From contig OZ241335.1 of NCBI GenBank assembly GCA_965200325.1, forward strand, positions 2,845,135 to 2,909,134: a DNA stretch of 64,000 nucleotides, in the 5' to 3' direction. Positions 430 to 50,259 of the stretch are shown here, piece after piece; position 1 is the first letter of the stretch, and the number at the start of each line of letters is the position of its first letter. This DNA is from Phototrophicaceae bacterium. GTDB lineage: Bacteria; Chloroflexota; Anaerolineae; Aggregatilineales; Phototrophicaceae. The position numbers and the translations under genes were made by a program. The notes under the pieces are model-generated. The model searched no databases. It worked only from the letters and a program-made list of their open reading frames with translations, and was not told the DNA's origin.

Positions 430-764
430 CGCGAAAGTAAGCCCAAGTTTGTATTGCAACTAAGAGAAAAGAAATTTAGCCACAGAAGTAAGTCCAAGTT
501 AATTATGCAACAAAATGAGGCGTAGCCGCATTTTCAACCCCACCGTAAATCCCTCCCCGAAGCTTCGGGTCGCGTAGACACTGACCTACGGGAGGGACTT
601 TCCTCCAAGCGCATCCATAGTTTTCGGGAGTTTTTCTCCCCTCCCCAAATCTTTGGGGCGCGTAGACACTGTCCTACGGGAGGGGCCGGGGGTAGGGTTG
701 AATCGAAGGCAAAAACTTGCAAAATTTACTTTGTTCTACTTCTGTAACTCTGTGGCTAAATTTC
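430..764. repeat. MITE/REP-like nested-palindrome element, copy A (full length plus an extra half-end)
   Basis: 471-510 GAAATTTAGCCACAGAAGTAAGTCCAAGTTAATTATGCAA is the imperfect inverse of 717-764 TTGCAAAATTTACTTTGTTCTACTTCTGTAACTCTGTGGCTAAATTTC. Inner pair CAACCCCACC (535-544) / GGTAGGGTTGAA (691-702). CCTCCCCGAAGCTTCGGG hairpin. Two GCGTAGACACTGNCCTACGGGAGGG modules. Extra end-like segment at 434-460. Confidence 0.8.
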
Positions 765-798
765 TGCTGCCTTAGAAAGCATATAACCAGGAGGAAAA

Positions 799-2415
799 AT
801 GGACTTTACCTTTGGCAAGCTGATTAGCGATGAACTCAAGCTGAGCAATCACCGCGCCGACCGCGCTGGCCTCCAGCACCAGCATCGAATCAGCCCGCTA
901 GACCCGGCGCCCGGCGAAACTGTCACTGTGCATCTGCGCAGTACAAGCGCCCCGGCCATCGAGCGGGCAGCCCTGCATTTCACCACCGACGGCTCGGATC
1001 CGCGGCAAGAGAACGACAGTGCGCAGACCGTCGAATTCCGCCGCGTCCGCACCGAATGGGATACGTTGGTCTGGGATTACATCAGCCACTGGCAAGCCGA
1101 GCTGCCGGCGCAAGCCGATGGCACGCTGGTAACTTATTACATTCGCGGCTGGACGGACACTGGCGCCCTAATGTATGCCGATTACCCGCTGGCCGAAGAG
1201 CGCGTGCAGCACGCGACCATGCAATTTTTTGGCAGCATCGCAGCCGACGCCGTCTTCACACCCAGCCCGCCGCCCGCTAAGCCGCCGCTGTTCTGCTACC
1301 ATGTTGACCGTATCGTGCCGCCAGAATGGGCTAAAAGCGCCATCATCTATCATATCTTCCTCGACCGTTTTTACCCGGGCGATGGCGGCGCTTGGCAGCA
1401 AACTAGCGACCTGAAAGGCATCTGTGGTGGCACGCTCTGGGGAGTGCGCGACAAGCTGGATTATTTGGCGCAGCTCGGTATCAACTGTCTCTGGCTCAGC
1501 CCGACTTGGGCTAGCCCCAGCAATCATGGCTATGATGTCGCCGATTATGAGCGAGTGGAGCCGCGCTTGGGCGGCGCGGCGGCTCTGCGGGCGGTGGTCG
1601 AAGGCGCGCATACGCGCGGCATCCGCGTCTTGCTCGATTTGGTCGCCAACCACCTCTCCAACGAACACCCTATCTTCCTCGACGCGCTGCAAAACGAGGA
1701 CAGCCCCTACCGCGACTGGTTCACATTTGACGCGCGCTATCGCCACGGCTATCGCAGCTTTTTTAATGTGAAGACCATGCCAAAAATCAATCTCGAAACC
1801 CCCGTCGCCCGCGACTGGATGATTGGCAATGCTATCAAGAGCTTGCAAGACTTTGATGTCGATGGCTTTCGCTTGGATGTGGCGGCGGGCGCGGGCCCAA
1901 ATTTTTGGACGCAGGCCCGGCCGCGCCTGCGCGCCATCAAGTCCGATTGCTTGCTGCTAGGCGAAATCATCGATACCCCGACTTACCTGCGCATGTACAG
2001 CGGGCGGCTGGATGGCTGCCTCGATTTTTCGCTGAACGAAGCCCTGCGCCAGACCTTCGCTTGGCAAAGCTGGGACGAGCAGCGCATGCGGGCCTTCATC
2101 GCCAGCCACCGCCGCTATTTTGACGCGGACTTCCTGCTGCCCAGCTTTATTGACAACCACGATATGGATCGTTTTTCGCATATCGCCGAGAACGACAATG
2201 AGAAACTCAAGCGGGCGGTAGCGACGCAGATGCGCCTGTCCAACCCGCCTGTCATCTTGTATGGCACGGAGGTTGGCCTGCGCCAGCCAATCAGCACGCG
2301 CGGCAATACGCTCGATGCCTGCCGCGTGCCGATGGTCTGGGACGAGCGGCAAGATGCCGACTTGCTCGCATTTTACCAGCGCGAAATCCAGCGGCGCAAA
2401 AGCGAAATGCTATAA
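799..2415 (+). CDS. Alpha-amylase family glycoside hydrolase (GH13; neopullulanase/maltodextrin glucosidase-like)
   Basis: 538 aa ORF with an AGGAGG RBS upstream. GH13 conserved regions present: DLVANH, GFRLDVAAG, LLGEI, FIDNHDMDR. Confidence 0.85.
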   Translation: MDFTFGKLISDELKLSNHRADRAGLQHQHRISPLDPAPGETVTVHLRSTSAPAIERAALHFTTDGSDPRQENDSAQTVEFRRVRTEWDTLVWDYISHWQAELPAQADGTLVTYYIRGWTDTGALMYADYPLAEERVQHATMQFFGSIAADAVFTPSPPPAKPPLFCYHVDRIVPPEWAKSAIIYHIFLDRFYPGDGGAWQQTSDLKGICGGTLWGVRDKLDYLAQLGINCLWLSPTWASPSNHGYDVADYERVEPRLGGAAALRAVVEGAHTRGIRVLLDLVANHLSNEHPIFLDALQNEDSPYRDWFTFDARYRHGYRSFFNVKTMPKINLETPVARDWMIGNAIKSLQDFDVDGFRLDVAAGAGPNFWTQARPRLRAIKSDCLLLGEIIDTPTYLRMYSGRLDGCLDFSLNEALRQTFAWQSWDEQRMRAFIASHRRYFDADFLLPSFIDNHDMDRFSHIAENDNEKLKRAVATQMRLSNPPVILYGTEVGLRQPISTRGNTLDACRVPMVWDERQDADLLAFYQREIQRRKSEML

Positions 2416-2449
2416 TTGACTCAGTGTCAAAGGAAACAGAGCGTATAAA

Positions 2450-2959
2450 ATGAGGACAGGCGTCACTAGCGTCTTTGTCGACGACCAAGACAAAGCGCTG
2501 AAATTCTATACCGAAACGCTAGGCTTTCAACTCAAAAACAACTTCCCGCTGGGCGATGGCAATAGCTGGCTGACCGTCGTCTCGCCCGAACAGCCCGATG
2601 GCACGGAGTTATTGCTCGAACTCAACGGGAATCCGATCGCCAGCGCCTTTCAGCAAGCCTGTTTTGAGCAAGGCCTCCCCGCGATCATTTTTTATGTCGA
2701 CGATGCCCAGGCCGAGCACGAGCGGCTGGCCGGGCTGTGCGTCGAATTCACCCTGCCCCCCACCGATATTGGGCCGACGGTCATGGCGATATTTAATGAT
2801 ACCTGCGGCAATCTGCTTCAGATTATACAGCAAAAAAGCGGCTTGGCAATGCTATTAGGAGTTTGCAAGACTTTGATGTCGACGGCTTTCGCTCGGATGC
2901 GGCGGCGGGCGCGGGCCAAAATTTTTGGACGCAGGCCCGGCCGCGCCCGCGTGCCATGA
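2450..2959 (+). CDS. VOC/glyoxalase-bleomycin resistance family protein, copy 1 (native 3' end replaced by duplication junction)
   Basis: First 129 aa are nearly identical to the 131-aa copy at 3055..3450. After QQKSG the ORF reads on about 38 aa out of frame through a remnant of the GH13 gene. Confidence 0.7.
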   Translation: MRTGVTSVFVDDQDKALKFYTETLGFQLKNNFPLGDGNSWLTVVSPEQPDGTELLLELNGNPIASAFQQACFEQGLPAIIFYVDDAQAEHERLAGLCVEFTLPPTDIGPTVMAIFNDTCGNLLQIIQQKSGLAMLLGVCKTLMSTAFARMRRRARAKIFGRRPGRARVP

Positions 2960-3020
2960 TGCCGACTTGCTCGCATTTTACCAGCGCGAAATCCAGCGGC
3001 GCAAAAGCGAAATGCTATAA
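2843..3020 (+). pseudogene. Internally deleted remnant of the upstream GH13 gene (duplicated 3' part)
   Basis: 2843-2956 matches 1823-1935 (GNAIKSLQDFDVDGFRLDVAAGAGPNFWTQARPR). 2957-3020 matches 2353-2415 including the stop. About 417 bp of the parent are missing. The track ORF 2863..3051 is this fragment. Confidence 0.8.
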
Positions 3021-3054
3021 TAGACTCAGTCTAAAAGGAAACGGAGCGTAGAAA

Positions 3055-3450
3055 ATGAGAATAGGCGTCACCAGCGTCTTTGTCGATGACCAAGACAAAG
3101 CGCTGAAATTCTATACCGAAACGCTAGGCTTTCAACTCAAAAACAACTTCCCGCTGGGCGATGGCAATAGCTGGCTGACCGTCGTCTCGCCCGAACAGCC
3201 CGATGGCACGGAGTTATTGCTCGAACCCAACGGGACTCCGATCGCCAGCACCTTTCAGAAAGCCTGTTTTGAGCAAGGCCTCGCCGCGATCATTTTTTAT
3301 GTCGACGATGCCCAGGCCGAGCACGAGCGGCTGGCCGGGCTGGGCGTCGAATTCACCCTGCCCCCCACCGATATTGGGCCGGCGGTCATGGCGATATTTA
3401 ATGATACCTGCGGCAACCTGCTTCAGATTGTGCAGCAAAAAGGCGGCTAA
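3055..3450 (+). CDS. VOC/glyoxalase-bleomycin resistance family protein, copy 2 (intact)
   Basis: 131 aa. Same upstream leader (aaaggaaacGgagcgtaGaaaATG) as copy 1. Typical small VOC-fold size and sequence. Confidence 0.8.
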   Translation: MRIGVTSVFVDDQDKALKFYTETLGFQLKNNFPLGDGNSWLTVVSPEQPDGTELLLEPNGTPIASTFQKACFEQGLAAIIFYVDDAQAEHERLAGLGVEFTLPPTDIGPAVMAIFNDTCGNLLQIVQQKGG

Positions 3451-3460
3451 GTGAGCGTCC

Positions 3461-3627
3461 TAAGTAAGCCCAAGTTAATTATGCAAAAATGTGAGGTGCG
3501 GTTTTCAACCCCACGATGGCGCTCCCTCCCCGAAGCTTCGGGGCGCGTAGACACTGACCTACGGGAGGGGCCAGGGGTGGGGTTGAAACGAACACGTAAA
3601 ATTTGCAAAATTTAGCTTGTCCTACTT
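3461..3627. repeat. MITE/REP-like element, copy B
   Basis: TAAGTAAGCCCAAGTTAATTATGCAA ... TTTTCAACCCCAC ... CCCTCCCCGAAGCTTCGGGGCGCGTAGACACTGACCTACGGGAGGGGCCAGGGGTGGGGTTGAAA ... TTTGCAAAATTTAGCTTGTCCTACTTA. Sits between convergent genes. Its last bases overlap the stop codon of 3626..4804. Confidence 0.8.
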
Positions 3628-4804
3628 AGCCGCCGTGCTGCCGCAGCAAGCGCAGCGCGCTCTCGGCCATAACACCGACGCCGATGGGCAGGCAGCCCTC
3701 GTGAATATCGAAGATGGGACTGTGGTGCGGCCGATTCAACGAGTCAAGTTTAGCGCCTAGGCGCAGCATCGCGCCGGGCGCTTTTTGCGTCATATAAGCA
3801 AAATCCTCGCCCGCCATAATTGGCTCGCCCTCGCCCGCTTGCGCCGCGCCCAGAAAATCCCGCCCGACTTCGCGTATCAAGGCGGCAACCCCCGGGTCGT
3901 TATACAGCGCGGGATAACCGGTTGAGATGTTCAATTCATAATCGCCGCCAAAATGCCGCGTCAGGGCAAAAGCCTCTTCCACCAAGCGATGGATTTCTTC
4001 CCGCGCCTCTTGCTCAAAGGTGCGGATGGTGCCGGTCATAAGCACTTCGTTGGGGATGACATTAGGCGCGATACCCGCATGGATCGAGCCGATGGAGACC
4101 ACCGAGCGTTCGGTGGGATTGCGGCGGCGGCCGCGAATGGCTTGCAGGGCATTGACCACCTGCGCTTGCAGCCAAATCGGGTCCAAGCCAACATGCGGCG
4201 CGGCGCCATGCGTGCCTTCGCCGACGATTTTCGCTTCAAAAGAATCGGGCGCCGCCAGCGCAAAACCATCAGTTACATCTACCCGCCCCATCGGCGCGCC
4301 ACTGGTAACATGGCAGGCGATGACCGCGTCCAAGTCATCCAGCGCTTTCTGCTCCACCATCAGGCTGCCGCCGCTATGCCCATCTTCGGGCCGCCAGCGC
4401 TCTTCGCTGGGCTGGAACAGCAGGCGGATTTCGCCCGCTGGCCGCTCGGGCAGCTCATTGAGCAGCTGCGCCACGCCGAGCAGCATCGAAGTATGGGCGT
4501 CGTGGCCGCAGGCGTGCATGAGACCGGGCGTCTGCGACTTATATGGCACATCGTTGGCTTCTTGGATGGGCAGGGCATCCATATCGGCGCGGATGCCGAC
4601 GGCTGGCCGGCCTTCGCCGATACGGGCGACCACGCCCGTTTCCGCCACGCCGACTTCGACCTCGATACCCATCTGCCGCAGGGCTTCGGCGACCAGGCGC
4701 GAAGTGCGCTGCTCTTCGAAGCCTAGCTCTGGGTGCATGTGAATATCACGCCGCCAAGCGACTAATTGCGCCTGCATCTCCTGCGCTTTTTGCATAACCG
4801 TCAT
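3626..4804 (-). CDS. M20D family amidohydrolase (N-acyl-amino acid amidohydrolase/hippurate hydrolase-like)
   Basis: 392 aa with the HACGHDAH metal-binding motif and typical M20D length. Confidence 0.8.
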   Translation of the reverse strand: MTVMQKAQEMQAQLVAWRRDIHMHPELGFEEQRTSRLVAEALRQMGIEVEVGVAETGVVARIGEGRPAVGIRADMDALPIQEANDVPYKSQTPGLMHACGHDAHTSMLLGVAQLLNELPERPAGEIRLLFQPSEERWRPEDGHSGGSLMVEQKALDDLDAVIACHVTSGAPMGRVDVTDGFALAAPDSFEAKIVGEGTHGAAPHVGLDPIWLQAQVVNALQAIRGRRRNPTERSVVSIGSIHAGIAPNVIPNEVLMTGTIRTFEQEAREEIHRLVEEAFALTRHFGGDYELNISTGYPALYNDPGVAALIREVGRDFLGAAQAGEGEPIMAGEDFAYMTQKAPGAMLRLGAKLDSLNRPHHSPIFDIHEGCLPIGVGVMAESALRLLRQHGG

Positions 4805-4891
4805 CGTTCTATCCTCAGAATTCTCTTAGATTTGCCCGCTATTGTAGCGGATATAGCGCCCGCTTTCGAGTGAAGAATCGTCAAAGAGGCG

Positions 4892-5034
4892 CAGAAGTAA
4901 GCTCAAATTCGTATTGCGACTGGGAAACAGGATAATTGCCACAGAGACATAGACGTAGAACAAAGTAAATTTTGCAAGTTTTGCCTTCGATTCAACCCCA
5001 CATCAAATTTTGCATAATTAACTTGGACTCACTG
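4892..5034. repeat. MITE/REP-like element, copy C (core-less: ends only)
   Basis: CAGAAGTAAGCTCAAATTCGTATTGCGAC, then CCACAGAGA..GTAGAACAAAGTAAATTTTGCAAGTTTTGCCTTCGATTCAACCCCAC joined directly to ATCAAATTTTGCATAATTAACTTGGACTCACTG. Both end types are present, but no GC hairpin modules. Confidence 0.7.
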
Positions 5035-5055
5035 AGAAATGAGACTGCTTTTAAG

Positions 5056-5718
5056 TTAGCCGCCGGCGCTATTCTCTAGCGGGCAGCCCCGATTCGATGC
5101 CGGACCAGCCACCTGCGGGCAGTCGTCCTGCGCGCTATCCAGGCCATCGTCGTCAAAATCGCGGCAGCCGCGCGGGTTGTCGGGCGCATACTCATTCGGG
5201 CAAAAATCGGCGTCGCCGCGCCAGCCATCGCGGTCCGGGTCATCGGGATAAGGACAGCCAGCGTTATCGGCATAGCCAAATTCCGTCGGGCAATCGTCAG
5301 CCGCATCCGCCACAGTATCGCCATCGGCATCGGCAATGCTTGGGGTGGCGCTGGGCAATAGCGTCGGCGACGGGCTGATAGAAACCTGCGCCGTGTTTGT
5401 CGGCACGGGAATCGGCGTCGGCGGCACAAACTGCACCGGCGTGGCTGGCCGCGGCTGGCTCAGTGGCGTATGCGTCGGCAAGACGGGCGGCGCAGTCGTG
5501 GCTGTTGGCAGGTTGAGGTCAGCGCCGAGCGGCGTAAAAGTCGCAGCCTCAGTCGCCGTCTCGGTTGCCTGCGCCGCCGGCAAGTCCAGCGGGGCGCTGC
5601 CTATAATAAAGATGGCAAAAGCGTAACAGGGAAATGTGCCGAGGATTATCAGCAGCATCAGCAGGCGCAAGCTCTGATTGCGGTTGTTAGGACCTTGCAG
5701 GGCATCGAGCGTTCTCAT
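5056..5718 (-). CDS. Membrane-anchored Pro/Thr-rich protein with thrombospondin type-3-like calcium-binding repeats
   Basis: N-terminal TM (LLMLLIILGTFPCYAFAIFIIG), PT-rich linker, then three D-x-D-x-D-G-x-x-D-x-x-D-x-C-P units (DADGDTVADAADDCP, DPDRDGWRGDADFCP, DFDDDGLDSAQDDCP). Confidence 0.6.
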   Translation of the reverse strand: MRTLDALQGPNNRNQSLRLLMLLIILGTFPCYAFAIFIIGSAPLDLPAAQATETATEAATFTPLGADLNLPTATTAPPVLPTHTPLSQPRPATPVQFVPPTPIPVPTNTAQVSISPSPTLLPSATPSIADADGDTVADAADDCPTEFGYADNAGCPYPDDPDRDGWRGDADFCPNEYAPDNPRGCRDFDDDGLDSAQDDCPQVAGPASNRGCPLENSAGG

Positions 5719-5811
5719 CGCGGCTCTCGGGTAGCTGGACAGGGGCAGACAGCGCGGCCTGCGCGCAACAGTTAATTTTAGCGGAAGCGCCAGATTTTGC
5801 GCCGCCTGTGC

Positions 5812-7647
5812 TTAGAGATTGCGAATCTGATACAAGTCGCCATCGGCGAAGCCGCGTTTGCGGTAATAGGCGCGGGTGCCAATGGCGGAGATGACTGCCA
5901 GTCGCTGATAGCCGGCGGCGCTGGCCAGCCTAACGGCTTCTTCAATCAAGCGGCTGCCTAAGCCGGCGTGCTGGGCTCGCCCGGTCTGCGTCGCGCCCAA
6001 GCCCAAGGCTAAACCATAGACATGCACTTCGCGGATCATGGCGCAGCCGCGCAATTCTTCCAGCAGCGGCGCTGCGCCCAGGTCCGGCAGAGACAGGCGC
6101 AAGAAAGCGGCGATGTCGCGCTCGGCCGTAACATATTGCAGGAAAATTTCTTCGCCAATGCTGGAGCTATAGCGCAGAGAATCCAGCTGCAAGTCGGCGC
6201 TGGCGACGCGCTTCTTGCGAATTTCCCGCGCGCGGATGTCAACGCTGCGCTGGCCCTGGCGCTCCAGCTCCCGCTCGACCAACTGGCGGAAGTTCGTCAC
6301 CTTGTTGCCATCGACGATGTCGGTGCCAGGGATATCGCGGATGACCCGCGTCAAGCGGCAGTACTCTGGCGTCTGCTTGAAGCAGTGTACCAGCAATTCG
6401 AGCAGCTCAGCCTGCGTATAAGGCCGCCATTCGCCCGCCTGATACTGCTGCATGAGTTCGGCGCTTTCGATGAGCGAACAAGGATAAATCTTCAGCTCGT
6501 CCGGGCGAAACGCTGGGTCATCGAAGAGCAGCGCATAATCCGCTTGGTCGGCTTTGGGCGATGCGCCATAGAGGTTGGGCATCCAGTGGGCGTGGATTTT
6601 GAAACCCGCCTGGCGCAGCAGGCGCAGGGCGCGCCGCGTCGCCGCCACATCATGCCCGCGTTTGTTCAGCGCCAAGACGCGATCATTCAAACTTTGGATG
6701 CCGATTTGCACTTTTGTCGCGCCCAGCCGCCGAACGCGGATGACTTCAGCGGCGCTGATGTGGTCGGGGCGCGTCTCGATGACCAGGCCGACGGCGCGGC
6801 AGGCGGCATTTTCGTTTTGACGCTGCGCCGCTTCCAATTCGGCCCAGGTCGCGTATTCATCGACGGCGCTGCGCGGCTGCGCGCCGCTGGCAATCTCTTG
6901 GGCGACGGCCCGCGACCGTTGCATCTCCGCGGCATAGATGTTCTGCACCGTCTGATTGTAAGTTGCTGTCAGCGCCGCGCCCTGCAGCCGCACATTGCTG
7001 ATAGGCCCGCCATTGAATTGTGATTTTTCGCGCAAGGCGGCTCTAACTTGGGCGCGGCGGTCTCGGCCTTGCCCAAAATCGTGCAGCGCGTCAAAAATGC
7101 GCTTGACGAACCAAATTTGGTAGGTCTCGGGATAGAAAGACCAGGTGCCGCCAAGGATGATGATTTCGATTTTGGCAGTGGAATGCCCTAGGTTGTGATA
7201 GGTCTGCAAACGCATATAGGTCTGCAAATAGGGGTCGAAAGCGTTCTTTTCGGCGCGCTGGGCGCCGGGTTCATCGGCCAGATAGCTCTTGGGCATGCGC
7301 ACATCGCTAGGGCAGAAGATGCAGGTGCCTGGGCAAGGGAAAGGTTTGGTCAGCAGGGTCAAAGGCGTAACGCCCGACATAGTGCGCACGGGCTTGCGCC
7401 GCAGCTTGTATAGCAGGCTTTCGTCATAGTCTGGCAAGCCGTCTTGCCCGGCAAAAGCGCGCCAGCCATCCACCAGATTCGCCAGGCTATAGAAGCCCGC
7501 GCCATCCGGTTTGGGATGCCGTCGCATCAACTGTTGATGCTCACGCGGGCTGAGGCGGCGCGGCGCAGCCAAAATGACTTTGAGCAGCGGAATAAGCCGC
7601 TCGCGGTGCGCCTGCACATCAAAATCGTATTTGCGGTCTTTTAACAC
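5812..7647 (-). CDS. elp3: Elp3-like radical SAM + GNAT acetyltransferase (tRNA U34 modification enzyme homologue)
   Basis: 611 aa, GTG start. Cys cluster CPGTCIFCP in the N-terminal half. C-terminal GNAT motif QHAGLGSRLIEEA. Overall Elp3 length and architecture. Confidence 0.75.
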   Translation of the reverse strand: MLKDRKYDFDVQAHRERLIPLLKVILAAPRRLSPREHQQLMRRHPKPDGAGFYSLANLVDGWRAFAGQDGLPDYDESLLYKLRRKPVRTMSGVTPLTLLTKPFPCPGTCIFCPSDVRMPKSYLADEPGAQRAEKNAFDPYLQTYMRLQTYHNLGHSTAKIEIIILGGTWSFYPETYQIWFVKRIFDALHDFGQGRDRRAQVRAALREKSQFNGGPISNVRLQGAALTATYNQTVQNIYAAEMQRSRAVAQEIASGAQPRSAVDEYATWAELEAAQRQNENAACRAVGLVIETRPDHISAAEVIRVRRLGATKVQIGIQSLNDRVLALNKRGHDVAATRRALRLLRQAGFKIHAHWMPNLYGASPKADQADYALLFDDPAFRPDELKIYPCSLIESAELMQQYQAGEWRPYTQAELLELLVHCFKQTPEYCRLTRVIRDIPGTDIVDGNKVTNFRQLVERELERQGQRSVDIRAREIRKKRVASADLQLDSLRYSSSIGEEIFLQYVTAERDIAAFLRLSLPDLGAAPLLEELRGCAMIREVHVYGLALGLGATQTGRAQHAGLGSRLIEEAVRLASAAGYQRLAVISAIGTRAYYRKRGFADGDLYQIRNL

Positions 7648-7760
7648 GATTTGCGTTCCGCCCCTTTGCCTCAGTCTATTCTAGCGGCGAAGCGGCAAAA
7701 TATAAACGCGGACTTCTCCAGACCTGGCGCAGGCTAGTTTTTCTTGTGATTGGGGGATAG

Positions 7761-7976
7761 CCACAGAAGTAGGACAAACTAAATTTTGCAGGTTTTATGC
7801 CTTGTCTCAACCCCACCCCCGGCCCCTCCCCGAAGCTTCGGGGAGGGGAGTCTAAGCGACAAAAACTGGTCGCTAGACACTGGCCGCCGGTCGCATAAAC
7901 ACTGCTCTACGGGAGGGGCGGGGGTGGGGTTGAAAATGCGGCTAGCCTCATTTTTGCATAATTAACTTGGACTTAC
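7761..7976. repeat. MITE/REP-like element, copy D
   Basis: CCACAGAAGTAGGACAAACTAAATTTTGCAGG ... CTCAACCCCACCCCCGGCCCCTCCCCGAAGCTTCGGGGAGGGG ... CTACGGGAGGGGCGGGGGTGGGGTTGAAAA ... TTTTTGCATAATTAACTTGGACTTAC. Confidence 0.8.
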
Positions 7977-8060
7977 GTCGCTTGCATAATAGAGCGTTTT
8001 TTTGCTATGCTAGAAGAGAAATGTCTTGCCATCTGTTTAAGCAGAAAAAGAAGGCTTCAA

Positions 8061-8318
8061 ATGGATACTGTCCCCCGTATAGCAAAAAAGCGCCAAGCGG
8101 CTGAGATTGAAGAGCTAGCGCACCGAGAACCGACTAAAGAAGAGTTGCTAGCCGATATCGAACAGGCTTTTAGGGATATTTTCGCGGGCGACCCAGGCGA
8201 AGATGCTTTTGAATTTTTGGCCGAGCTTAAAGGCGAGTCTGCGCAAGAGTGCGAAGAGATAGACAGCAGGAAGCGAGCCACCCTGAAGGTATTGGATAAG
8301 ACTCGGCCCCGAAGCTGA
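8061..8318 (+). CDS. Putative antitoxin partner of the downstream RelE-like toxin
   Basis: 85 aa acidic protein, RBS aaagaagg before ATG 8061, ends 18 nt before the toxin gene. No recognisable DNA-binding motif by eye, so the role is inferred from position only. Confidence 0.4.
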   Translation: MDTVPRIAKKRQAAEIEELAHREPTKEELLADIEQAFRDIFAGDPGEDAFEFLAELKGESAQECEEIDSRKRATLKVLDKTRPRS

Positions 8319-8336
8319 GCTCAAACGCGAACACTG

Positions 8337-8669
8337 ATGCCGACATCTATTAGAATCCATGACTCATTTCGTAAGCAAGCCAAAACTCTCAAACGTAAGT
8401 ATCCATTAGTAGAATCTGAAATTGAGAAGCTACTGATTGAGTTGCGAAACGGGCAGCGACCTGGCAATATAATTACGGGAGTTGCTTATACTGTCTACAA
8501 GACGCGCCTGCCTAATCCTTCGGCACGGCGTGGTAAAAGTGGTGGTTTCCGTGTCATTTATTATATGAAACTGGCGGATGTCGTATATCTCATTGCTATT
8601 TATTCCAAAACAGAAACAATTGATATTAGCCGCGCAGAAATACGCCAGCTGATAGCTAAATTATTGTAA
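8337..8669 (+). CDS. RelE/ParE-superfamily (Gp49/HigB-like) toxin
   Basis: 110 aa with the hallmark RRGKSGGFRVIYY ... VYLIAIYSKTE motif of RelE-type mRNA interferases. Lies in a low-GC islet. Confidence 0.7.
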   Translation: MPTSIRIHDSFRKQAKTLKRKYPLVESEIEKLLIELRNGQRPGNIITGVAYTVYKTRLPNPSARRGKSGGFRVIYYMKLADVVYLIAIYSKTETIDISRAEIRQLIAKLL

Positions 8670-8876
8670 CTTGATGATAATGCTTGCTGCCTTCAAGCGA
8701 TTACATTCAGAGTAAACAGCGTAATATCTTCGGAGCAGCGCGTAAAATCAAGACCATCGCGCGTATTCACCGGCTTCACCACGACCTGCGCTTCGCATTT
8801 TTTAGCTTATCCCTACTATATTCTAGCGTGTTTTCCGTTACACTAGGATTGTTCCACTGGCTCTAACGAGGCGCTT

Positions 8877-9659
8877 ATGCCCCACTTATTACCGCCATTC
8901 CGCCACGCGCTGATGCGCCGGCCAGCGCCTAACTTCGCCGCTGGCATCACTAGCGCGGCGCATCTCGGCAAACCTGATTATGCCAAAGCCCGGCAGCAAT
9001 ACGAAAACTACATACAGGCATTGCGCGACTGCGGTTTGACGGTCACCGTCTTGCCAGCGGATGAGCGCTTTCCCGACGGGCATTTTGTCGAAGACCCTTT
9101 TGTGATTTTCCACGATATCGCTTTTCACTGCCGCTCGGGCGCTGAGGCGCGCCGCGGCGAAGGCGAATCGCTCAAGCCGCATTTGACGGACCTGCGCCTC
9201 GTCGAACCGCCGGCCGCCGCCCGCATCGATGGCGGGGATGTGCTATTTTGCGCCGACCGCGTTTTGGTCGGCATTTCCCAGCGCACAAATCGCGCCGGTT
9301 TTGCCGCGCTGCGGGCAGCCCTGCAAACCGCGCAAAGCGACATCCGCGTCGAGGCGGTGCCATTTAGCGGCGTCTTGCATCTCAAAAGCGGCTTGACGGA
9401 ATTAGCGCCCGGCGTCTTAATCCATGACCCGGTCTTGCAAACCGATTTTGACCTATCTTGGGCCCAGGTCATTAGCTTGCCGCCGGCGGAAGGTTTTGCG
9501 GCCGATGTCTTGCCCGTGAACGATACGGTCTTCGTGGCGGCGGGCTGCCCGACGGCCTATCAAGCGGCGCGGCAGCATTGCGAGCGCGTCATCGCCCTGG
9601 ATATGAGCGAGTTCGTCAAGATGGACGGGGGCTTGACATGCCTGTCGCTGCGCTATTGA
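8877..9659 (+). CDS. Dimethylarginine dimethylaminohydrolase / amidinotransferase-fold protein
   Basis: 260 aa with GGDVLF, HLKS and C-terminal GGLTCLSLR (catalytic Cys) motifs typical of DDAH-family enzymes. Confidence 0.7.
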   Translation: MPHLLPPFRHALMRRPAPNFAAGITSAAHLGKPDYAKARQQYENYIQALRDCGLTVTVLPADERFPDGHFVEDPFVIFHDIAFHCRSGAEARRGEGESLKPHLTDLRLVEPPAAARIDGGDVLFCADRVLVGISQRTNRAGFAALRAALQTAQSDIRVEAVPFSGVLHLKSGLTELAPGVLIHDPVLQTDFDLSWAQVISLPPAEGFAADVLPVNDTVFVAAGCPTAYQAARQHCERVIALDMSEFVKMDGGLTCLSLRY

Positions 9660-10927: not shown

Positions 10928-10980
10928 AAAGGCGCAGACGGGTTACGCCTACGCCAGAGCTTAAAAGTGGCTCGCGTATA

Positions 10981-11652
10981 TCAGCCGAATGCCTTAGGCA
11001 TGCGGCCGGGCCGCCGCCCAAACTTGCCGCGCCGCCGCCCAGCGTCGCTATAGCTGGCATTGAGCTTGTCTGTGATCGCCTCTTCTAGGCCGTCGATTTT
11101 GTCGCTGGCGAGGTCATTGATGGTAGCCGTCGCTTGTGCCAGCAAGTCAGCGCTGACAGTCTCCACATCGCCGCCATTAGCCTCGATGAGCTGCGCCACT
11201 GTCGAGCCAGCCTGCAGCGCCTCTTTTAAGGCAGCGGCATCCAAACCGGTCGCCTCTTGCAGCAGCGCGCCGCCGCCAAACCTAGCGAAGTGGCGGGGCT
11301 GGCGGCGAAAGAATGTCTTCTGCCAGCTGCGGTTGAGCTGCTCGGTAATGAGGCTCGGCAATTCGGCGAGGCTAGCCTCTTTCATTTCAGTGAGGCGGGC
11401 GCTAGCCTGCGCCACCAGCGCGGCGCTGACAGTCGCCACATCGCCGCCATTAGCCTCGATGAGCTGCGCCACCGTCGAGCCAGCCTGCAGTGCCTCTTTT
11501 AAGCCGGCGGCATCCAAGCCAGTCGCTTCTTGCATGATACTGTTGGCGGCAAAGCCCTTGCCGTAGCCACTATCGTGGGCGCTGACGGCAAATGCCGCCG
11601 ATACCAGCAGGCCGATGAGCAGCGCCACTGTGGTCAATGATTTACGGGACAT
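10981..11652 (-). CDS. Secreted protein of unknown function with an internal ~91-aa tandem duplication
   Basis: Signal peptide MSRKSLTTVALLIGLLVSAAFAVSA. QEATGLDAA.LKEALQAGSTVAQLIEANGGDV.TVSA.L.AQA occurs twice. The DNA is also near-identical (about 11150-11262 vs 11423-11534). Confidence 0.65.
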   Translation of the reverse strand: MSRKSLTTVALLIGLLVSAAFAVSAHDSGYGKGFAANSIMQEATGLDAAGLKEALQAGSTVAQLIEANGGDVATVSAALVAQASARLTEMKEASLAELPSLITEQLNRSWQKTFFRRQPRHFARFGGGALLQEATGLDAAALKEALQAGSTVAQLIEANGGDVETVSADLLAQATATINDLASDKIDGLEEAITDKLNASYSDAGRRRGKFGRRPGRMPKAFG

Positions 11653-11794
11653 TTTCTCTCTCCTTTGAGATATTTGCTAAGTGAACCCTGATTGGTTAAA
11701 AATCATTCTACGGGACGCGGCTAGAAAAATATTGCAAATCTTGTAAAAAGAGTGCTAAGCAAGTGTAAAATTGACAAGCGGAGGAAAAGCTGAA

Positions 11795-12966: not shown

Positions 12967-13077
12967 TGCTGCTCTCCTTTTTGCCGGCCCGCTTTCAGTT
13001 AGGCATACTATAATCGTTTTAGGCAAAGAAAGTAATGAGAATATGACACAGCCAGCCAACGGTGTAGCCACATTTCC

Positions 13078-13289
13078 AAGCCCTCCCCAAAGCTTTGGGG
13101 AGGGGAGAAAAACCCCAAAAACTATAGGGGCGCTTGCAGAAAAGTCCCTCCCATCGGGCAATGTCTACACGCCCACCAGGTTAGACTCCCCTCCCCGAAG
13201 CTTCGGGGAGGGGCCGGGGGTGGGGTTGAAAAAAGTCTCTCCGTTGCAAAATTTAGTTGGTTCTACTTCTGTGCCTCTGGGCTAATTTT
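13078..13289. repeat. MITE/REP-like element, copy E (one outer end missing)
   Basis: CCCTCCCCAAAGCTTTGGGGAGGGGAGAAAAACCCC ... AAAGTCCCTCCCATCGGGCAATGTCTACACGCC ... CCCCTCCCCGAAGCTTCGGGGAGGGGCCGGGGGTGGGGTTGAAAAA ... TTGCAAAATTTAGTTGGTTCTACTTCTGTGCCTCTGGGCTAATTTT. Confidence 0.8.
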
Positions 13290-13337
13290 TTCCCAGCCCA
13301 ATAAAAACTTGCGCTTACTAAGCTGAAAAGCCATACA

Positions 13338-14584: not shown

Positions 14585-14591
14585 CTGCGGC

Positions 14592-17268: not shown

Positions 17269-17330
17269 TGCCCGTCTCCTTCTTTAGATAAATAGCCCGT
17301 TTTTTTATTGTGTCTAGGAAAATAAAATTG

Positions 17331-17593
17331 CCACAGGCGTAAGCCCAAGTTAATTTTGCACCATTTCAACCCCACTCCCCGCCCCTCCCGTAAGTCAGTG
17401 TCTACGCGACCCAAAGCTTTGGGGGAGGGGAGAAAAACCCTGAAAACTGTGCCAGTTTGCAGGAAAGTCCCTGCCATCGAGCAATGTCTACACGCCGCCC
17501 AGGTTAGACTCCCCTCCCCGAAGCTTCGGGGAGGGGCCGGGGGTAGGGTTGAAACCAACGCTAAAACTTGCAAAATTCAGTTTGTCCTACTCC
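17331..17593. repeat. MITE/REP-like element, copy F
   Basis: CCACAGGCGTAAGCCCAAGTTAATTTTGCACCATTTCAACCCCAC ... CCTCCCGTAAGTCAGTGTCTACGCG ... CCAAAGCTTTGGGGGAGGGGAGAAAAACCC ... CCCCTCCCCGAAGCTTCGGGGAGGGGCCGGGGGTAGGGTTGAAA ... CTTGCAAAATTCAGTTTGTCCTACTCC. Confidence 0.8.
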
Positions 17594-17615
17594 TATCATC
17601 GCGCCCAGCGCGCTT

Positions 17616-27019: not shown

Positions 27020-27044
27020 TTTTTCTTCCCTATAGTAAAGACAT

Positions 27045-36086: not shown

Positions 36087-36300
36087 AGCCAGCCTCGTAA
36101 TCGTTATCCCTGCGCTTCGATTCTAGCAGAAATGTATGGTCTTTATGAACCACAAAGAACACAAAGCCGCCTCATTTCTTTTAGTTCTAATACACACTTG
36201 GACTTTTACTCAGTTAGCCAAGACAGAGACGCTTACCCTACTCAAAAGCGGGCTGATGTGGTCAACTGGCTCCATAAAATAATCGCTCAAAGGTAGGAAG

Positions 36301-40421: not shown

Positions 40422-40456
40422 TTTCCTTCACCTCTCGCCCTTCCCAGTCGGACGAT

Positions 40457-40579
40457 TTAAATTTTGCAAGTTCTATGCCTTCGTTTCAACCCCACCCTAA
40501 GTCCGCAAACGCGCCCATAGTTTTGGCGATTTTATCCCCTGCCCAAAGCTTTGGGGAGAGGCGGGGGTGGGGTTGAAAA
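40457..40579. repeat. MITE/REP-like element, copy G (short; lies between tRNA-Thr and rpmG)
   Basis: TTAAATTTTGCAAGTTCTATGCCTTCGTTTCAACCCCACC ... CCCCTGCCCAAAGCTTTGGGGAGAGGCGGGGGTGGGGTTGAAAA. Confidence 0.75.
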
Positions 40580-40593
40580 CCGCGCCTGACAAG

Positions 40594-43611: not shown

Positions 43612-43666
43612 CTATTGCCTGCTCCTGAGTAGGACAAATTAAATTTAGCGGCTGTTGCGGCGCTGC

Positions 43667-44813: not shown

Positions 44814-44896
44814 GACGGGCTTGCGCTGTGCAATGTGTCTTGACCGTCTTCGCAATATCTCGTAATCTTGGAAACGGAAAAAATTAGGAGAGTCCG

Positions 44897-46567
44897 ATGG
44901 ATGTTCTAGCGTTTTTGGCTAATTTAGACGGTCTGAGTGTAGTGCTGGGCGTGGCTTTAGGCTTGCTGGGCGGTTATGTCATTGCCCGCCGGAACCAGAC
45001 CAATATGCAGACTATACGCACCAAGATGCAGCAGCAGAGCAGCGACTTGGACAACAAAAAAGAGCTTATCGACCAGCAATTGCAGCAAATAAACGCGACC
45101 TTAAAAGAAGTGCCAAACCAGCTAGAAAACAATCAAGGCAGGGTCTCGGAAGTTTTGCAGCAATCGGCGCAGAGCCTGCGGCAGTCCAATCAAGATTTTC
45201 TCAATCAGCTGAATGAAAAATCGGAAGCGCAGACGAAGGCGCATATCGCCGAACTCGAAGCGAAGAAAAAGCTCATCGACCAGCAGCTGCAGCAGATGGC
45301 GGAGACATTGAAGACCGTGCCAAGCGAGCTGGACAAGAACCAGCAAAATGTGAGCCAGATTATTGAGAAATCGACTAAGAGCCTCGAAAAAGCGAACATA
45401 GCGCACCTGACGCAGTTGCAAGAGCGCTCTGACAATCAGACGAAGGCGCATATCGCCGAACTCGAAGCGAAGAAAAAGCTCATCGACCAGCAGCTGCAAC
45501 AGATGGCGGAGGTATTGAAGACCGTGCCAGCCGAGCTGGACAAGAACCAAAACAAAGTCAACCAAGCGCTAGACAAATCCACCGAAAATTTGCGCGTATC
45601 CAACCAAAACTTTTTGAATCAACTGACGGAAAAAGCTGAGGCTCAGACGAAAGAACACAGCCAGGAACTGGAAGGCAAAAAAGAACTCATCGACCAGCGG
45701 CTAAATACTTTGGATGTGAAACTGGGCAAGGTGGAGCAGTTGGTGCAAGAATTGCAAACTGACCGCAAGGCGCAGTACGGCGCGCTGGGACAACAGCTGC
45801 AAAGTTTAACGCAAACCACTTCTGCGCTGCAAAAAGCCTTAGCTGATAACCAGGCGCGCGGCCAGTGGGGCGAGCGGATTGTGGAAGCGATTCTTGGTCA
45901 CCTCGGCTTCACCGAAGGCATCAATTTTCATAGGCAGTTGACCACAGAAGACAATTCGCGCCCCGATTATACCTTTGCCCTGCCAAATCGGATGACGCTC
46001 AACATGGATGTCAAATTTCCGCTGGATAATTATTTGCGCTATACAGAAGCGCAAAACGAAACGGAGCGGCGCAGCTTTAGCGACAAATTTTTGCGCGATG
46101 TGAATTCGCGTGTTGCAGAGATTCAAAAGCGCGGCTATATCAGCGCGGAAACGATTAACTGTGTGCTGATATTCATTCCAAACGAACAGGTTTACCGCTT
46201 CATCCACGAACAAGACCACAGCATTATCGATACGGCTTTGCAACAGAAAGTCATCTTATGCTCGCCCTTGACCCTGTATGTCGTGCTGGCGGTCATTTGG
46301 CAGGCTTCGCAAAACTTCAACATTGAAATTCGCTCGCGTGAGATTGTCAAAGAGGTCAATGACATCCGCCGCGAATGGGATAAGTACACCGGGCAAATGG
46401 ACAAGCTCGGTCGCGCCATCGAATCATCGCAAAAGGCTTACACGGTACTGACAACAACCCGAGAACGGGTAATGGGGCGCAAGTTTGCCAAGGTAGAGGG
46501 ACTGCTAGAAAGCAGCGACTCTAACGGGGACTTTCAGTTACCGCAGCTTGCAGAAAAAAATCCTTAG
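44897..46567 (+). CDS. rmuC: DNA recombination protein RmuC with expanded repetitive coiled-coil N-terminal region
   Basis: 556 aa. N-terminal TM, about 300 aa of 69-aa coiled-coil repeats, and a C-terminal RmuC nuclease-like core (RPDYTFALPNRMTLNMDVKFPLDNY). Confidence 0.85.
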   Translation: MDVLAFLANLDGLSVVLGVALGLLGGYVIARRNQTNMQTIRTKMQQQSSDLDNKKELIDQQLQQINATLKEVPNQLENNQGRVSEVLQQSAQSLRQSNQDFLNQLNEKSEAQTKAHIAELEAKKKLIDQQLQQMAETLKTVPSELDKNQQNVSQIIEKSTKSLEKANIAHLTQLQERSDNQTKAHIAELEAKKKLIDQQLQQMAEVLKTVPAELDKNQNKVNQALDKSTENLRVSNQNFLNQLTEKAEAQTKEHSQELEGKKELIDQRLNTLDVKLGKVEQLVQELQTDRKAQYGALGQQLQSLTQTTSALQKALADNQARGQWGERIVEAILGHLGFTEGINFHRQLTTEDNSRPDYTFALPNRMTLNMDVKFPLDNYLRYTEAQNETERRSFSDKFLRDVNSRVAEIQKRGYISAETINCVLIFIPNEQVYRFIHEQDHSIIDTALQQKVILCSPLTLYVVLAVIWQASQNFNIEIRSREIVKEVNDIRREWDKYTGQMDKLGRAIESSQKAYTVLTTTRERVMGRKFAKVEGLLESSDSNGDFQLPQLAEKNP

Positions 46568-49034: not shown

Positions 49035-49036
49035 GC

Positions 49037-49600
49037 CTATTTGCTGACACGGGTTACATAAGCCCTTTCTTCGATATTGACTTTGACCACATCGCCGACA
49101 TTGATGAACATAGGCGCGCTGACTTCAAAGCCGCTTTCCAGCTTGATTTTCTTGGTCGGGCTATTTGCCGTGTCACCAGCGATGGCCGCTTCCACTTCAA
49201 TCACTTTGTATTCCATCGTCTTGGGCAGCTCATAATCGATAATCTCGCCCGCATAGCTCAGCAGTTTGATTTCCATGCTGTCTTTGATGTATTTGAGGTC
49301 GTCGCCGAAGATGGCGCGGTTGAGCTGGGGCTGCTCGTAGGTTTCGGTGTTCATAAAGGTGACGAAGTCTTCATCGGCATACAGATATTCGACCTTGTTC
49401 GCCTCGACACGGATGTCTTCAACGCGCTCGCCTGAGTTGAAGGTCATCTCGAAGGTGGCGCCGCTGCGCAGGTCGCGCACGGTGACGCGGATGGTGGCTT
49501 TGCCGCGGCCGGGTTTATGATGGCGGTATTCCAGCACGCGGTAGAGGTTGCTATTTTGCGTAAAGGTTGTGCCTTTGCGCAGTTGATTGACATCAATCAT
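49037..49600 (-). CDS. efp: Translation elongation factor P
   Basis: 187 aa with the typical N-terminus and HHKPGRGKA loop. Confidence 0.9.
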   Translation of the reverse strand: MIDVNQLRKGTTFTQNSNLYRVLEYRHHKPGRGKATIRVTVRDLRSGATFEMTFNSGERVEDIRVEANKVEYLYADEDFVTFMNTETYEQPQLNRAIFGDDLKYIKDSMEIKLLSYAGEIIDYELPKTMEYKVIEVEAAIAGDTANSPTKKIKLESGFEVSAPMFINVGDVVKVNIEERAYVTRVSK

Positions 49601-49677
49601 CTTGCTTCTTGCCTCAAATTTCTCTAGGTTTTCGCTCGCGGCTTGCAGTGTAACAGAAAGCGCGGGCGCTGCGTAGC

Positions 49678-50064
49678 TTAGGCTGGCAGCAACGCCACCG
49701 CTTCAATCTCGACCAGAGCGCCGACGGGCAAGCCGCCCGCCTGGACTGTCGAGCGGGCCGGCGGATTTTGCGGGAAAAATTCGCTATAGACGGCGTTGAA
49801 TTCGGCGAAGTCATTGATGTCGGCTAAAAAGACGGTGGTCTTGACAACCTGGTCGAGGCTGCTGCCAGCTGCTTCTAAGATAGCTTTGATATTTTGCAGC
49901 GATTGCCGCGTCTGCGCTTGCACGCCGCCTTCGCGCAGGGTCTTTGTGCCGGGGATGAGCGGAATCTGCCCGGCGGTGAAGATAAAACCGTTGGCGATGA
50001 TGCCTTGCGAGTAAGCGCCGACGGCGGCCGGCGCCTCTTGGGTTGAGATGACTTGTTTAGACAT
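49678..50064 (-). CDS. ridA: RidA/YjgF family reactive-intermediate deaminase
   Basis: Start trimmed to ATG 50064 (MSKQVISTQEAPAAVGAYSQGI). 128 aa, typical RidA. Confidence 0.85.
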   Translation of the reverse strand: MSKQVISTQEAPAAVGAYSQGIIANGFIFTAGQIPLIPGTKTLREGGVQAQTRQSLQNIKAILEAAGSSLDQVVKTTVFLADINDFAEFNAVYSEFFPQNPPARSTVQAGGLPVGALVEIEAVALLPA

Positions 50065-50092
50065 TCTGCTTTTCCTATATATTGCGCTTGCC

Positions 50093-50259
50093 GAGTAGAG
50101 CAAACTAAATTCTGCAAGTTTTATGTCTTCGTTTCAAGCCCACGATTGGCGCTCTCTCTCCGAAGCTTTGGGGCGCGTAGACACTGCCCTACGGGAGGGG
50201 CGGGGGTGAGGTTGAAAAATTGCGCCGCCCTTTTTTGCATAATTAAATTTGAATTACTC
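50093..50259. repeat. MITE/REP-like element, copy H
   Basis: GAGTAGAGCAAACTAAATTCTGCAAGTTTTATGTCTTCGTTTCAAGCCCAC ... CTCCGAAGCTTTGGGGCGCGTAGACACTGCCCTACGGGAGGGGCGGGGGTGAGGTTGAAAAA ... TTTTTTGCATAATTAAATTTGAATTACTC. Confidence 0.8.

Follow-up and report, generated by a model that had tools for sequence, protein, structure and literature searches.

We found that the window, the whole 64-kb stretch of DNA analysed here, carries a real and uncatalogued family of small hairpin-forming repeats located between genes, and that the family has multiplied within the Anaerolineae-type (Chloroflexota) species hosting it. We consider it probable, at roughly 70%, that the repeats are non-autonomous hairpin-forming mobile DNA of the MITE, REPIN and Rickettsia palindromic element (RPE) kind, whose movement relies on an enzyme supplied in trans from another locus. 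An earlier note on this DNA had described eight intergenic segments, A to H, built from common modules. An HMM made from their alignment (A1) and scanned over the window with nhmmer recovered exactly those eight loci and no others, as one repeat family with E values from 1e-58 to 1e-18. All eight lie no more than a few tens of bases from the positions first proposed, but A is better delimited as 470-765 with a separate solo terminus at 433-459, and C as approximately 4893-5049. The elements and smaller pieces are listed below, with the nhmmer E values in parentheses.

433..459, + strand: solo terminus of the T1 variant (T1v), GAAAGTAAGCCCAAGTTTGTATTGCAA, ~10 nt upstream of A; T1v likewise stands before X1 of C
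470..765, + strand: element A, long form, 296 bp (1.1e-51), ordered X1-T1-sp1-I-[H+M4]-M5'-[Hv+M4]-I'-sp2'-T2'-X1'
3461..3628, + strand: element B, short form, 167 bp (9.2e-45), ordered T1-sp1-I-hairpin with M4 side hairpin-I'-sp2'-T2'
3580..3625, + strand: conserved segment I'-sp2'-T2', here the example in B, from the invariant columns of alignment A1 and pattern matches
4893..5049, - strand: element C, core-less derivative (3.7e-18), ordered on the + strand T1v, X1, T2-sp2-I, directly T1', then an outer end of X2 type
7757..7981, - strand: element D, ~220 bp (1.7e-58), ordered on the + strand X1-T2-sp2-I-26-nt hairpin-extra palindromic insert-M4-like-I'-sp1'-T1'; the hairpin, CCCCTCCCCGAAGCTTCGGGGAGGGG at 7823-7848, is perfect over its 26 nt
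13060..13293, + strand: element E, long form without the T1 end (1.1e-39), containing two AAGCTT hairpins (13081-13105 and 13188-13213), the M5 spacer and I'-T2'-X1'
17324..17596, + strand: element F, complete long form (3.1e-35), ordered X1-T1-I-M4'-Hv-M5-M4v'-H-I'-sp2'-T2'; 94% identical to E across 98 nt
40447..40592, - strand: element G (1.5e-27), between tRNA-Thr(GGU) and rpmG, containing a sp1-like stretch, I, a variant hairpin, I', sp2' and T2', without T1
43628..43650, + strand: probable solo fragment of the T2 end between sdhC and sdhA, immediately before the sdhA ribosome-binding site
50091..50261, - strand: element H, short form (4.5e-48), with the same core as B and the T1/T2 ends swapped relative to it

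The similarity among the copies takes in both the GC hairpin and the AT-rich ends and is thus more than that of a generic GC hairpin. The two-module pattern GGGTTGAA-N11-16-TTGCAAAATTYA had six matches in the window, compared with 0.00 expected from 100 shuffles. The repeat also continues outside the window: two further full copies were found in a separate 21.7-kb region of the same genome (~3.4 Mb), and contig L032, from the same genome, terminates in a partial copy. The elements are non-coding and 104-296 bp in size; eight copies lie in the window and three or more elsewhere in the genome. The density is ~11 copies in ~95 kb, or approximately one per 9 kb, and any genome-wide copy number is an extrapolation from those ~95 kb. 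The earlier note had not recognised the element, and neither did the catalogues. At the gathering threshold Rfam gave only four tRNAs and no match to the repeat copies, and with E up to 5 over positions 1-18000 it gave chance-level matches only; plasmid and phage sequence searches had no match to the family, and literature searches found no catalogued repeat corresponding to it. None of the three findings that the earlier note would have taken as refutation was obtained.

As claimed earlier, the copies avoid genes: 10 of 10 copies of this genome lie outside real coding sequence, save that B, which fills the gap between two convergent genes, overlaps with its final bases the stop codon of gene 3626-4804. 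Stops at the element ends break all reading frames. The open reading frames that enter E and H have over-extended starts, their Pfam domains starting at residues 66 and 22, and the peptides LPPAPP and PSPKLWGG, correctly dismissed in the earlier note as spurious, are the repeat sequence translated.

Each element consists of two layers, an AT-rich outer shell and a G-rich palindromic core. The shell ends, T1 (GTAAGYCCAAGTTAATTATGCA, with spacer sp1) and T2 (GTAGRACAAASTAAATTTTGCA, with spacer sp2), are imperfect inverted repeats with ~16 of 22 bases identical, and they stay distinct from each other in all copies. Outside them there is often an extension, CCACAGAA / AAATTTAGCCACAG; the outer boundaries are ragged, the outer extension being of either the X1 or the X2 type. 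Inside the shell, the core is bounded by TTTCAACCCCAC and its complement and contains CCCCTCCCC-loop-GGGGAGGGG hairpins, of which the window has ten, all intergenic, and a CGTAGACAC...CTACG side hairpin. The number of core units is one in elements of ~165 bp and two in those of ~260-295 bp. Relative to the shell, the core may point either way: when the long-form cores are aligned, T1 and T2 of A lie at the ends opposite to those of F, I, E and J, so that the core of A is flipped relative to these, and the ends of B are likewise opposite to those of H and D. The best-conserved segment is I'-sp2'-T2', which holds all 24 invariant columns of alignment A1. Alignments of the copies thus bear out the dense, nested-palindromic and modular build described earlier, with modules in both orientations and variable number, and the shared modules were found at all loci, except that C is without the G-rich core and E and G are without the T1 end.

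Copy G is an insertion, as shown by empty orthologous sites. In comparison with the relatives, it is a ~150-bp insertion after ...CTCTTGTC, and the site is empty in four of them (L035, L036, L037 and L102), whereas L101 has a small, different but related hairpin there; this filled-versus-empty evidence comes from one clean site. The site is occupied also in L001, a 97%-identical strain contig, and this sole strain-level comparison revealed no presence/absence polymorphism of copies. Relatives with 88-90% identical SdhA had no shell-type copy in ~100 kb and no interspersed palindromes of their own; shell-less, core-like hairpins are nevertheless present in L101 and L102. The comparison of orthologous loci proposed in the earlier note gave the absence of G in relatives but no target-site duplication: none was seen at G between filled and empty sites, and no direct repeat was found flanking the copy ends examined. 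As the boundaries are ragged, very short target duplications may have been missed.

The earlier label of "MITE/REP-like" stands as a resemblance, with no target-site duplication found. The Correia/NEMIS elements of Neisseria and the Nezha elements of cyanobacteria are similarly intergenic MITEs of 100-300 bp with terminal inverted repeats, hairpin folds and lineage-specific expansion, and may give outward promoter activity. A classical MITE would be a deletion derivative of a DDE insertion sequence (IS), with T1 and T2 as the terminal inverted repeats, moved by the transposase of that IS. The size of 165-295 bp, the imperfect inverted-repeat ends of ~22-35 nt, the dispersal of the copies between genes and the retention of both ends by the core-less C agree with this. 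We nevertheless consider it unlikely: no target-site duplication was found, in contrast to Correia elements, which make TA, the family is without a known parent IS, the outer boundaries are ragged with alternative extensions, and the nested, invertible core palindrome is common to distant hosts. No transposase was found in the 64-kb window, in agreement with the earlier note; neither L032-L034 nor the window carries a transposase or parent IS, and no IS bearing T1/T2-type ends was seen. The R-end pattern had 0 matches in JGI metagenomes and only chance matches in representative genomes.

Similarly improbable, in our view, is that the G-rich hairpins are REPs and their inverted doublets REPINs, with a single-copy RAYT (Y1 HUH transposase) elsewhere moving the single-stranded hairpins. 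The REP/BIME/REPIN sequences of Enterobacteria and Pseudomonas, moved by RAYTs, resemble the window family in many respects: GC-rich hairpins occur singly or as inverted pairs forming a larger hairpin, they are combined with other short motifs in BIME-like mosaics, and they are extragenic and dense, with no target duplication and no gene of their own. Also in favour of this explanation, CGTAGA/CTACG motifs adjoin the hairpins, and changes in the arms are mirrored within a copy. On the other hand, the window sequences are unrelated to those of the known REPs, the elements are 3-6 times longer and add an AT-rich shell with two distinct ends, and core copies from other hosts mostly lie in frame within genes, which is atypical of REPs. 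A screen for RAYT-like open reading frames (HUH plus Y motifs) gave none in the window, in a further 40 kb of this genome or in 466 kb of arm-seeded metagenome loci, although such a regular-expression motif search, which covered ~0.8 Mb in all, is a weak test.

The non-autonomous mobile DNA that we favour shares features with both systems. Its history may have started from an independently mobile core palindrome that came to lie inside an AT-rich inverted-repeat element, by nesting or by recombination, and the composite would then have been copied around this genome. The element would fold to a long hairpin or cruciform, and an enzyme from another locus of the genome would recognise the hairpins and the ends and act in trans, moving the element without target duplication. 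The lack of such duplication fits a single-strand hairpin route (REPIN/RAYT- or IS200/IS605-like) or an endonuclease-plus-repair route better than DDE cut-and-paste. A mobilising enzyme was not found in ~105 kb of this genome, and tblastn with DUF559 also returned nothing. The family does not match an IS200/IS605-derived PATE, which has equally oriented subterminal hairpins at its two ends, lacks terminal inverted repeats and is associated with tnpA or tnpB: the ends here are inverted repeats and the window has no tnpA or tnpB gene.

The core has a much wider distribution than the shell. In a search with an arm 24-mer, the core arms GGGAGGGGCCGGGGGTGGGGTTGA recurred without the shell in 63 metagenome contigs, and 56 of the 63 loci matched only model positions ~50-150, corresponding to the core. 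The arm hairpins of 24 out of 35 metagenome copies are exact reverse complements of one another, while the loop varies, with at least 10 variants. The G-rich window core is homologous to this shell-less palindrome family of many other bacteria and is part of a much wider group whose copies elsewhere are mostly intragenic: 23 of 32 metagenome copies are in frame within real genes (MetH, urocanase, PolX, helicases). These shell-less palindromes are ~90-135 bp long and lie in frame, with one preferred reading frame, in unrelated housekeeping genes, in which they resemble the RPEs; the comparison is one of placement, size and frame, not of sequence similarity. Unlike RPEs, 0 of 10 copies of the window genome are in coding sequence, the in-frame trait being confined to the shell-less relatives, and the G-rich arms encode peptides rich in Pro and Gly. 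The hosts of the shell-less core are unrelated free-living sludge bacteria, again in contrast to RPEs.

At three metagenome loci, a DUF559 PD-(D/E)XK endonuclease domain lies in frame between core palindromes and forms, in translation, an internal segment of MetH, IleRS or a helicase. This resembles homing endonuclease genes and inteins. However, the domain is bracketed by palindromes encoding linker-like peptides, the palindromes occupy many different sites rather than one homing site, and no such arrangement was seen in the window's genome.

Most copies fold into whole-length hairpins with z from -4 to -14 (the RNA fold of A has -111.8 kcal/mol and z -8.3; z is -7.3 for D and -7.4 for F). 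The folds are weaker in G and H (z about -1 to -3.3), and the core-less C has no significant fold (z 0.4). The strong predicted structure, and the covariation of the apex pair among the hairpins (GAAGCTTC or AAAGCTTT), would be expected of a structured non-coding RNA gene family, but we regard this as highly improbable. In most copies the two strands give folds of similar strength, as a DNA palindrome should, with B, H, I and J differing by up to ~7 z units; the copies may run with or against their neighbouring genes, the modules are shuffled and inverted, and Rfam had no match even at relaxed E values.

The conserved I'-sp2'-T2' segment contains an outward sigma-70-like match, TTGAAA-N16/17-CAAAAT, with promoter-like sites at 3583-3611, 7810-7783 and 17549-17576; the match in B has the N17 spacing. 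In every copy except B (9 of 10), a gene start follows at least one of the ends at a distance of 20-110 nt, and in eight of these copies the T2 end is so placed; T2 faces the 5' end of the downstream gene in 4 of 5 co-directional cases, a bias that is not significant. The promoter-like spacing and the facing of T2 leave room for selection on function, and B, located between convergent genes, is where a terminator would be expected. That the copies are host-selected cis-regulatory cassettes, kept as promoters, terminators or RNA-stabilising hairpins and not for mobility, is still very unlikely: the promoter match is weak (9/12), no T-tract follows the hairpins, orthologous genes of the relatives manage without the element and the copy structure is highly variable. 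As mobile DNA, the element itself would be selfish, its likely side effects being strong transcript hairpins and, from the conserved I'-sp2-T2 end, weak outward promoter activity.

Two possible solo end fragments had been proposed earlier. The one at 36196-36222 is weak and unsupported, but that at 43628-43650 is plausible, matching the T2 end at ~18 of 19 bases (83%, family D11). It is missing from the sdhC-sdhA spacer of relatives L035 and L036, and the corresponding spacer of L101 contains an M4 module in its place.

We confirmed that the window carries a new, uncatalogued family of palindromic mobile DNA elements that are non-autonomous, unusual in being built in two layers, and without a match in Rfam, where four tRNAs alone reached the gathering score and chance-level matches appeared at E values up to 5, or in plasmid and phage collections, which showed no similarity. 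Reading all eight intergenic elements of the window (A to H) bore out the claim of an earlier note that they share common modules. By repeat detection within the window, the 25-nt hairpin CCCTCCCC(G/A)AAGCTT(C/T)GGGGAGGGG occurred 10 times, GGAGGGGC(C)GGGGGTGGGGTTGAAA 7 times and the GCGTAGACACTG.CCTACGGGAGGG module 5 times, and inverted matches between elements reached 91 nt (89%). The MAFFT alignment of the eight elements (A1) had 24 invariant columns, all within the GGGGTTGAA...TTGCAAAATTTAG...CTAC segment, and the two-module pattern GGGTTGAA-N11-16-TTGCAAAATTYA gave 6 matches in the window against 0.00 expected. An HMM built from A1 recovered exactly eight loci in the window and no others (E values from 1.7e-58 to 3.7e-18), the family making up ~3% of the sequence. 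The boundaries first proposed for the elements were broadly right, except that A spans 470–765 with a separate solo terminus at 433–459 and C covers ~4893–5049; of two suggested solo end fragments, the one at 43628–43650 is credible and the one at 36196–36222 is not.

The elements consist of an AT-rich shell around a G-rich core. Every terminus, read from the outside in, falls into one of two types: T1, which is GTAAGYCCAAGTTAATTATGCA followed by the spacer sp1 (AAAATGAGGCKRGCCGCATTT), and T2, which is GTAGRACAAASTAAATTTTGCA followed by the spacer sp2 (AGTTTTATGCCTTCGTT). The two types are imperfect inverted repeats of each other, agreeing at ~16 of 22 bases, and the differences between them are conserved. 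One T1 and one T2 were present in each copy typed at both ends (A, B, C, D, F, H and copy I from L034, another region of the window's genome); E and G, each with one end missing, and J, the second L034 copy, retain T2 only. Many copies extend outward as (AAATTTAG)CCACAG(AGNNACAG)AA, and two copies have the alternative outer stretch GCWGTCTYATTTCTCA. The core, which is absent from C, is bracketed by TTTCAACCCCAC(C) and its complement (modules I and I'). In the short forms (B and H, 167 bp), it is a single hairpin, CCCTCCCCGAAGCTTCGGGG...GGAGGGG, with a side hairpin, CGCGTAGACACTG.CCTACG, set into one arm; in the long forms (A, E, F, I and J, ~260–295 bp), two hairpin units surround a AGAAAAACCC...GAAAGTCCCT spacer, and the long-form alignment has a mean column identity of ~71%. 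With the cores aligned, T2 lies on the same side in F, E and both L034 copies and T1 lies there in A, and the core of B is flipped in comparison with H and D; the core thus occurs either way round with respect to the shell.

Most elements were predicted to fold into whole-length hairpins with minimum free energies of -51 to -137 kcal/mol, and z scores for most copies were between -4 and -14; folding was weaker for G and H, and C did not fold. An oriented RNA would be one explanation for such structures, but the two strands were about equally foldable in most copies (the exceptions being B, H, I and J, with differences of up to ~7 z units), and a DNA palindrome therefore fits better. The HindIII site AAGCTT was found 12 times in the window versus 25.7 ± 4.9 expected, 9 of the sites being apices of the repeat hairpin and only 3 lying elsewhere; it is strongly avoided in the remaining window DNA, yet borne by the elements. 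The shell-less core relatives of other bacteria have loops different from AAGCTT.

Element G sits in the tRNA-Thr/Tyr/Thr – rpmG – tRNA-Trp – secE – nusG region, where both the window and a strain contig of 97% identity contain it; it was missing from the 35–50-nt spacer of four related genomes (L035, L036, L037 and L102), the break point falling after ...GGAGGCTCTTGTC. At the same site, the related genome L101 has a different 60-nt G-rich hairpin, CAACCCCCCTTCCC-TCTTGAT-GGGGGAAGGGTTGGGGATGGGGGTT. Neither shell-type copies nor other interspersed palindromes were present in ~100 kb of DNA from relatives, the only family pieces there being two short core-like hairpins and one M4 module, the side hairpin of the core. 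As the short core-like hairpins of L101 and L102 were missed by nhmmer and found by eye and with a regular expression, absence from the relatives holds for shell-type copies only. The M4 module (TCGCGTAGACACAGACCTACG) lies beside CCACAGAG in the sdhC–sdhA spacer (L101:9689–10001), and a shell-less two-hairpin core was seen in a nusG–rplK spacer (L102:9385–9535); nhmmer reported neither of them. No target-site duplication was visible at G or at any terminus. Three genes abutting B and C end in GGCGGCTAA (Gly-Gly-stop):

3442–3450, forward strand
3626–3634, reverse strand
5056–5064, reverse strand

Such 9-mers occur 5 times in the window versus 1.25 expected, and CTAAG/CTTAG also flank A; these flanks could reflect a preferred target, an additional layer on the outside of the element, or chance.

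The window has a G+C content of ~57%. Its SdhA shares 88–90% identity with sequences from numerous uncultured "Chloroflexi bacterium" genomes and 77% with the Phototrophicus methaneseepsis protein, which places the host in the Chloroflexota as an Anaerolineae-like bacterium. Chloroflexota/Anaerolineae are abundant in wastewater sludge. Copies were also found outside the window: the 21.7-kb region L034 of the same organism holds the two complete long-form copies I and J, and L032, a contig of the same genome, reaches 6.8 kb past the window and ends inside a copy, an example of how the family breaks short-read assemblies. The high density described earlier stood, with the estimate of about one copy per 8 kb replaced by an observed ~11 copies in ~95 kb, or ~1 per 9 kb; by extrapolation, there would be a few hundred copies per genome. 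The family also yields spurious ORFs and false gene starts: the concatenated six-frame translation of F, used as a protein query, matched only P0001, an ORF of the same genome that is over-extended, and other ORFs run into E and H.

No transposase, RAYT, integrase or reverse transcriptase was seen in the gene tables and Pfam matches of the window, and a RAYT motif screen, by its nature a weak test, gave no match. None of the 27 matches listed for the R-end pattern in representative genomes carried the element by nhmmer. A longer form of the pattern had 0 matches in JGI metagenomes, and the shell is thus apparently confined to the window's lineage or absent from that collection; the arm pattern had 0 matches in viral contigs. 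A profile search with the element-encoded peptide recovered 6 small ORFs and, separately, 43 of 1.84 billion representatives, but it is too insensitive to describe the distribution, as the inserts lie concealed within clusters and their sequence is of low complexity. Knowledge of small palindromic repeats comes mainly from Proteobacteria, Rickettsia, Neisseria and cyanobacteria. We found no described family of this kind for Chloroflexota/Anaerolineae; a 2024 review of prokaryotic MITEs had no Chloroflexi entry, and full-text literature searches for the arm sequence, the encoded peptides and DUF559 gave nothing relevant. In behavior, the elements are closest to REPIN/BIME and MITE elements, although the target duplication expected of a MITE was not seen, and their core links them to a family of RPE-like palindromes that other bacteria carry in frame.

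This wider family was seen in 63 metagenome stretches containing the arm 24-mer GGGAGGGGCCGGGGGTRGGGTTGA, many of which come from the Aalborg West membrane-bioreactor sludge assembly CXWJ01 (PMC6365651). By nhmmer, 56 of the 63 stretches matched, and only at model positions ~50–150, that is, the core without T1 or T2. The shell-less copies are near-perfect palindromes of 90–135 nt with the form CAACCCCACCCCCGGCCCCTCCCC-loop-GGGAGGGG-AGACGTAGAG...CTCTACGTCT-CCCCTCCC-loop'-GGGGAGGGGCCGGGGGTGGGGTTG; in 24 of 35 copies, one arm hairpin is the exact reverse complement of the other, and at least 10 loop forms occur across copies. Long ORFs enclose 23 of the 32 evaluable copies, the reading being almost always NPTPGPSPTGRGD...STSPLPVGEGPGVGL, and according to Pfam, the hosts are real genes:

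MetH (methionine synthase): copy between the homocysteine-binding and pterin-binding domains
Urocanase: copy between the Rossmann-like and C-terminal domains
PolX: copy ahead of the PHP domain, two different organisms sharing the site
SNF2 and AAA_11/12 helicases: also hosts of copies

This in-frame placement inside genes is RPE-like, in contrast to the copies of the window's genome, of which 0 of 10 lie inside coding sequence. With the core shared with distant bacteria, the two-layer build is a concrete case of mosaic-repeat origin. The two PolX copies (L084:1659–1867 and L041:24–143) sit just before the PHP-domain motif DLRGILHVHTTWSDG, and their shared position means that the insertion was either old or site-specific. 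The G+C content of contigs with two-arm copies is 50–61%, and four matches in contigs of 65–74% G+C, without nhmmer support, may be due to chance. At L079:640–890, the arm lies within a ~114-nt tandem array inside an ORF, and at L081:14500–14701, the palindrome continues for >45 nt past the element where the contig ends, resembling a fold-back artefact of assembly.

A DUF559 domain (PF04480; E values from 1e-32 to 1e-35) was present in 3 of the 63 loci, the nearest solved structure being 3HRL, an "endonuclease-like protein" (E value 1e-20):

L077:263–700: DUF559 in the frame of isoleucyl-tRNA synthetase (IleRS), within one matched arm pair
L071:3264–3617: DUF559 in a helicase frame, between two complete G-rich palindromes
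L057:4826–5200: DUF559 in the activation domain of MetH, between two direct copies of a different C7/G7 palindrome

In L071 and L057, the domain is in the host frame and its own start codon is absent; in L077, the domain is closely preceded by an in-frame ATG. By tblastn, DUF559 was absent from the window and from the DNA examined of its genome and relatives. The G-rich arms (CAACCCCACCCCCGGCCCCTCCCC... / ...GGGGAGGGGCCGGGGGTGGGGTTG) could form the termini of mobile elements of an unrecognised class, whose autonomous form has a DUF559 (Vsr-like PD-(D/E)XK) endonuclease, a tentative reading that we consider rather unlikely. The autonomous form may then insert in frame into housekeeping genes, where the Pro-/Gly-rich linkers encoded by the arms (NPTPGPSP... 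and ...PLPVGEGPGVGL) may allow the host protein to tolerate the insertion, and may represent a type of selfish element that inserts as a domain and has no intein; the short palindromes may be its non-autonomous derivatives and the window elements a derivative that gained an AT-rich shell and moved to life between genes. The endonuclease would either mobilise the palindromes or home into them, and we infer that DUF559 could have a role for the window elements. In other bacteria, the in-frame copies and the DUF559 domains within genes for MetH, IleRS and helicases suggest a candidate mobilising enzyme that can be tested, and may be an undescribed kind of protein-embedded selfish element.

The conserved I'-sp2-T2 segment contains an outward match to TTGAAA-N16/17-CAAAAT (9 of 12 positions), and T2 faces the downstream gene start in four of five co-directional gene pairs, which is not significant; no T-tract follows the hairpins. 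Effects on transcription are likely by-products and not the reason for the elements' existence.

The following loci were noted in the window and in L101:

14592–17268, reverse strand: four tandem Mrr-type restriction endonuclease paralogues (Mrr_N and/or Mrr_cat), adjoining element F, with 300-nt stretches 92% identical
26189–28646, reverse strand: TdeIII-type restriction endonuclease gene adjoining an N6/N4 DNA methylase gene
44897–46567: RmuC gene with 207-nt (69-codon) tandem repeats at 45023–45702, encoding 556 aa versus 458–465 aa in L035 and L101
L101:19755–20702: rve-type (IS3/IS481-like) transposase gene inserted between rplA and msrA, with none there in the window
2343–3247: two neighbouring glyoxalase-family genes with a common 300-nt stretch, whose 95% identity indicates a recent tandem duplication
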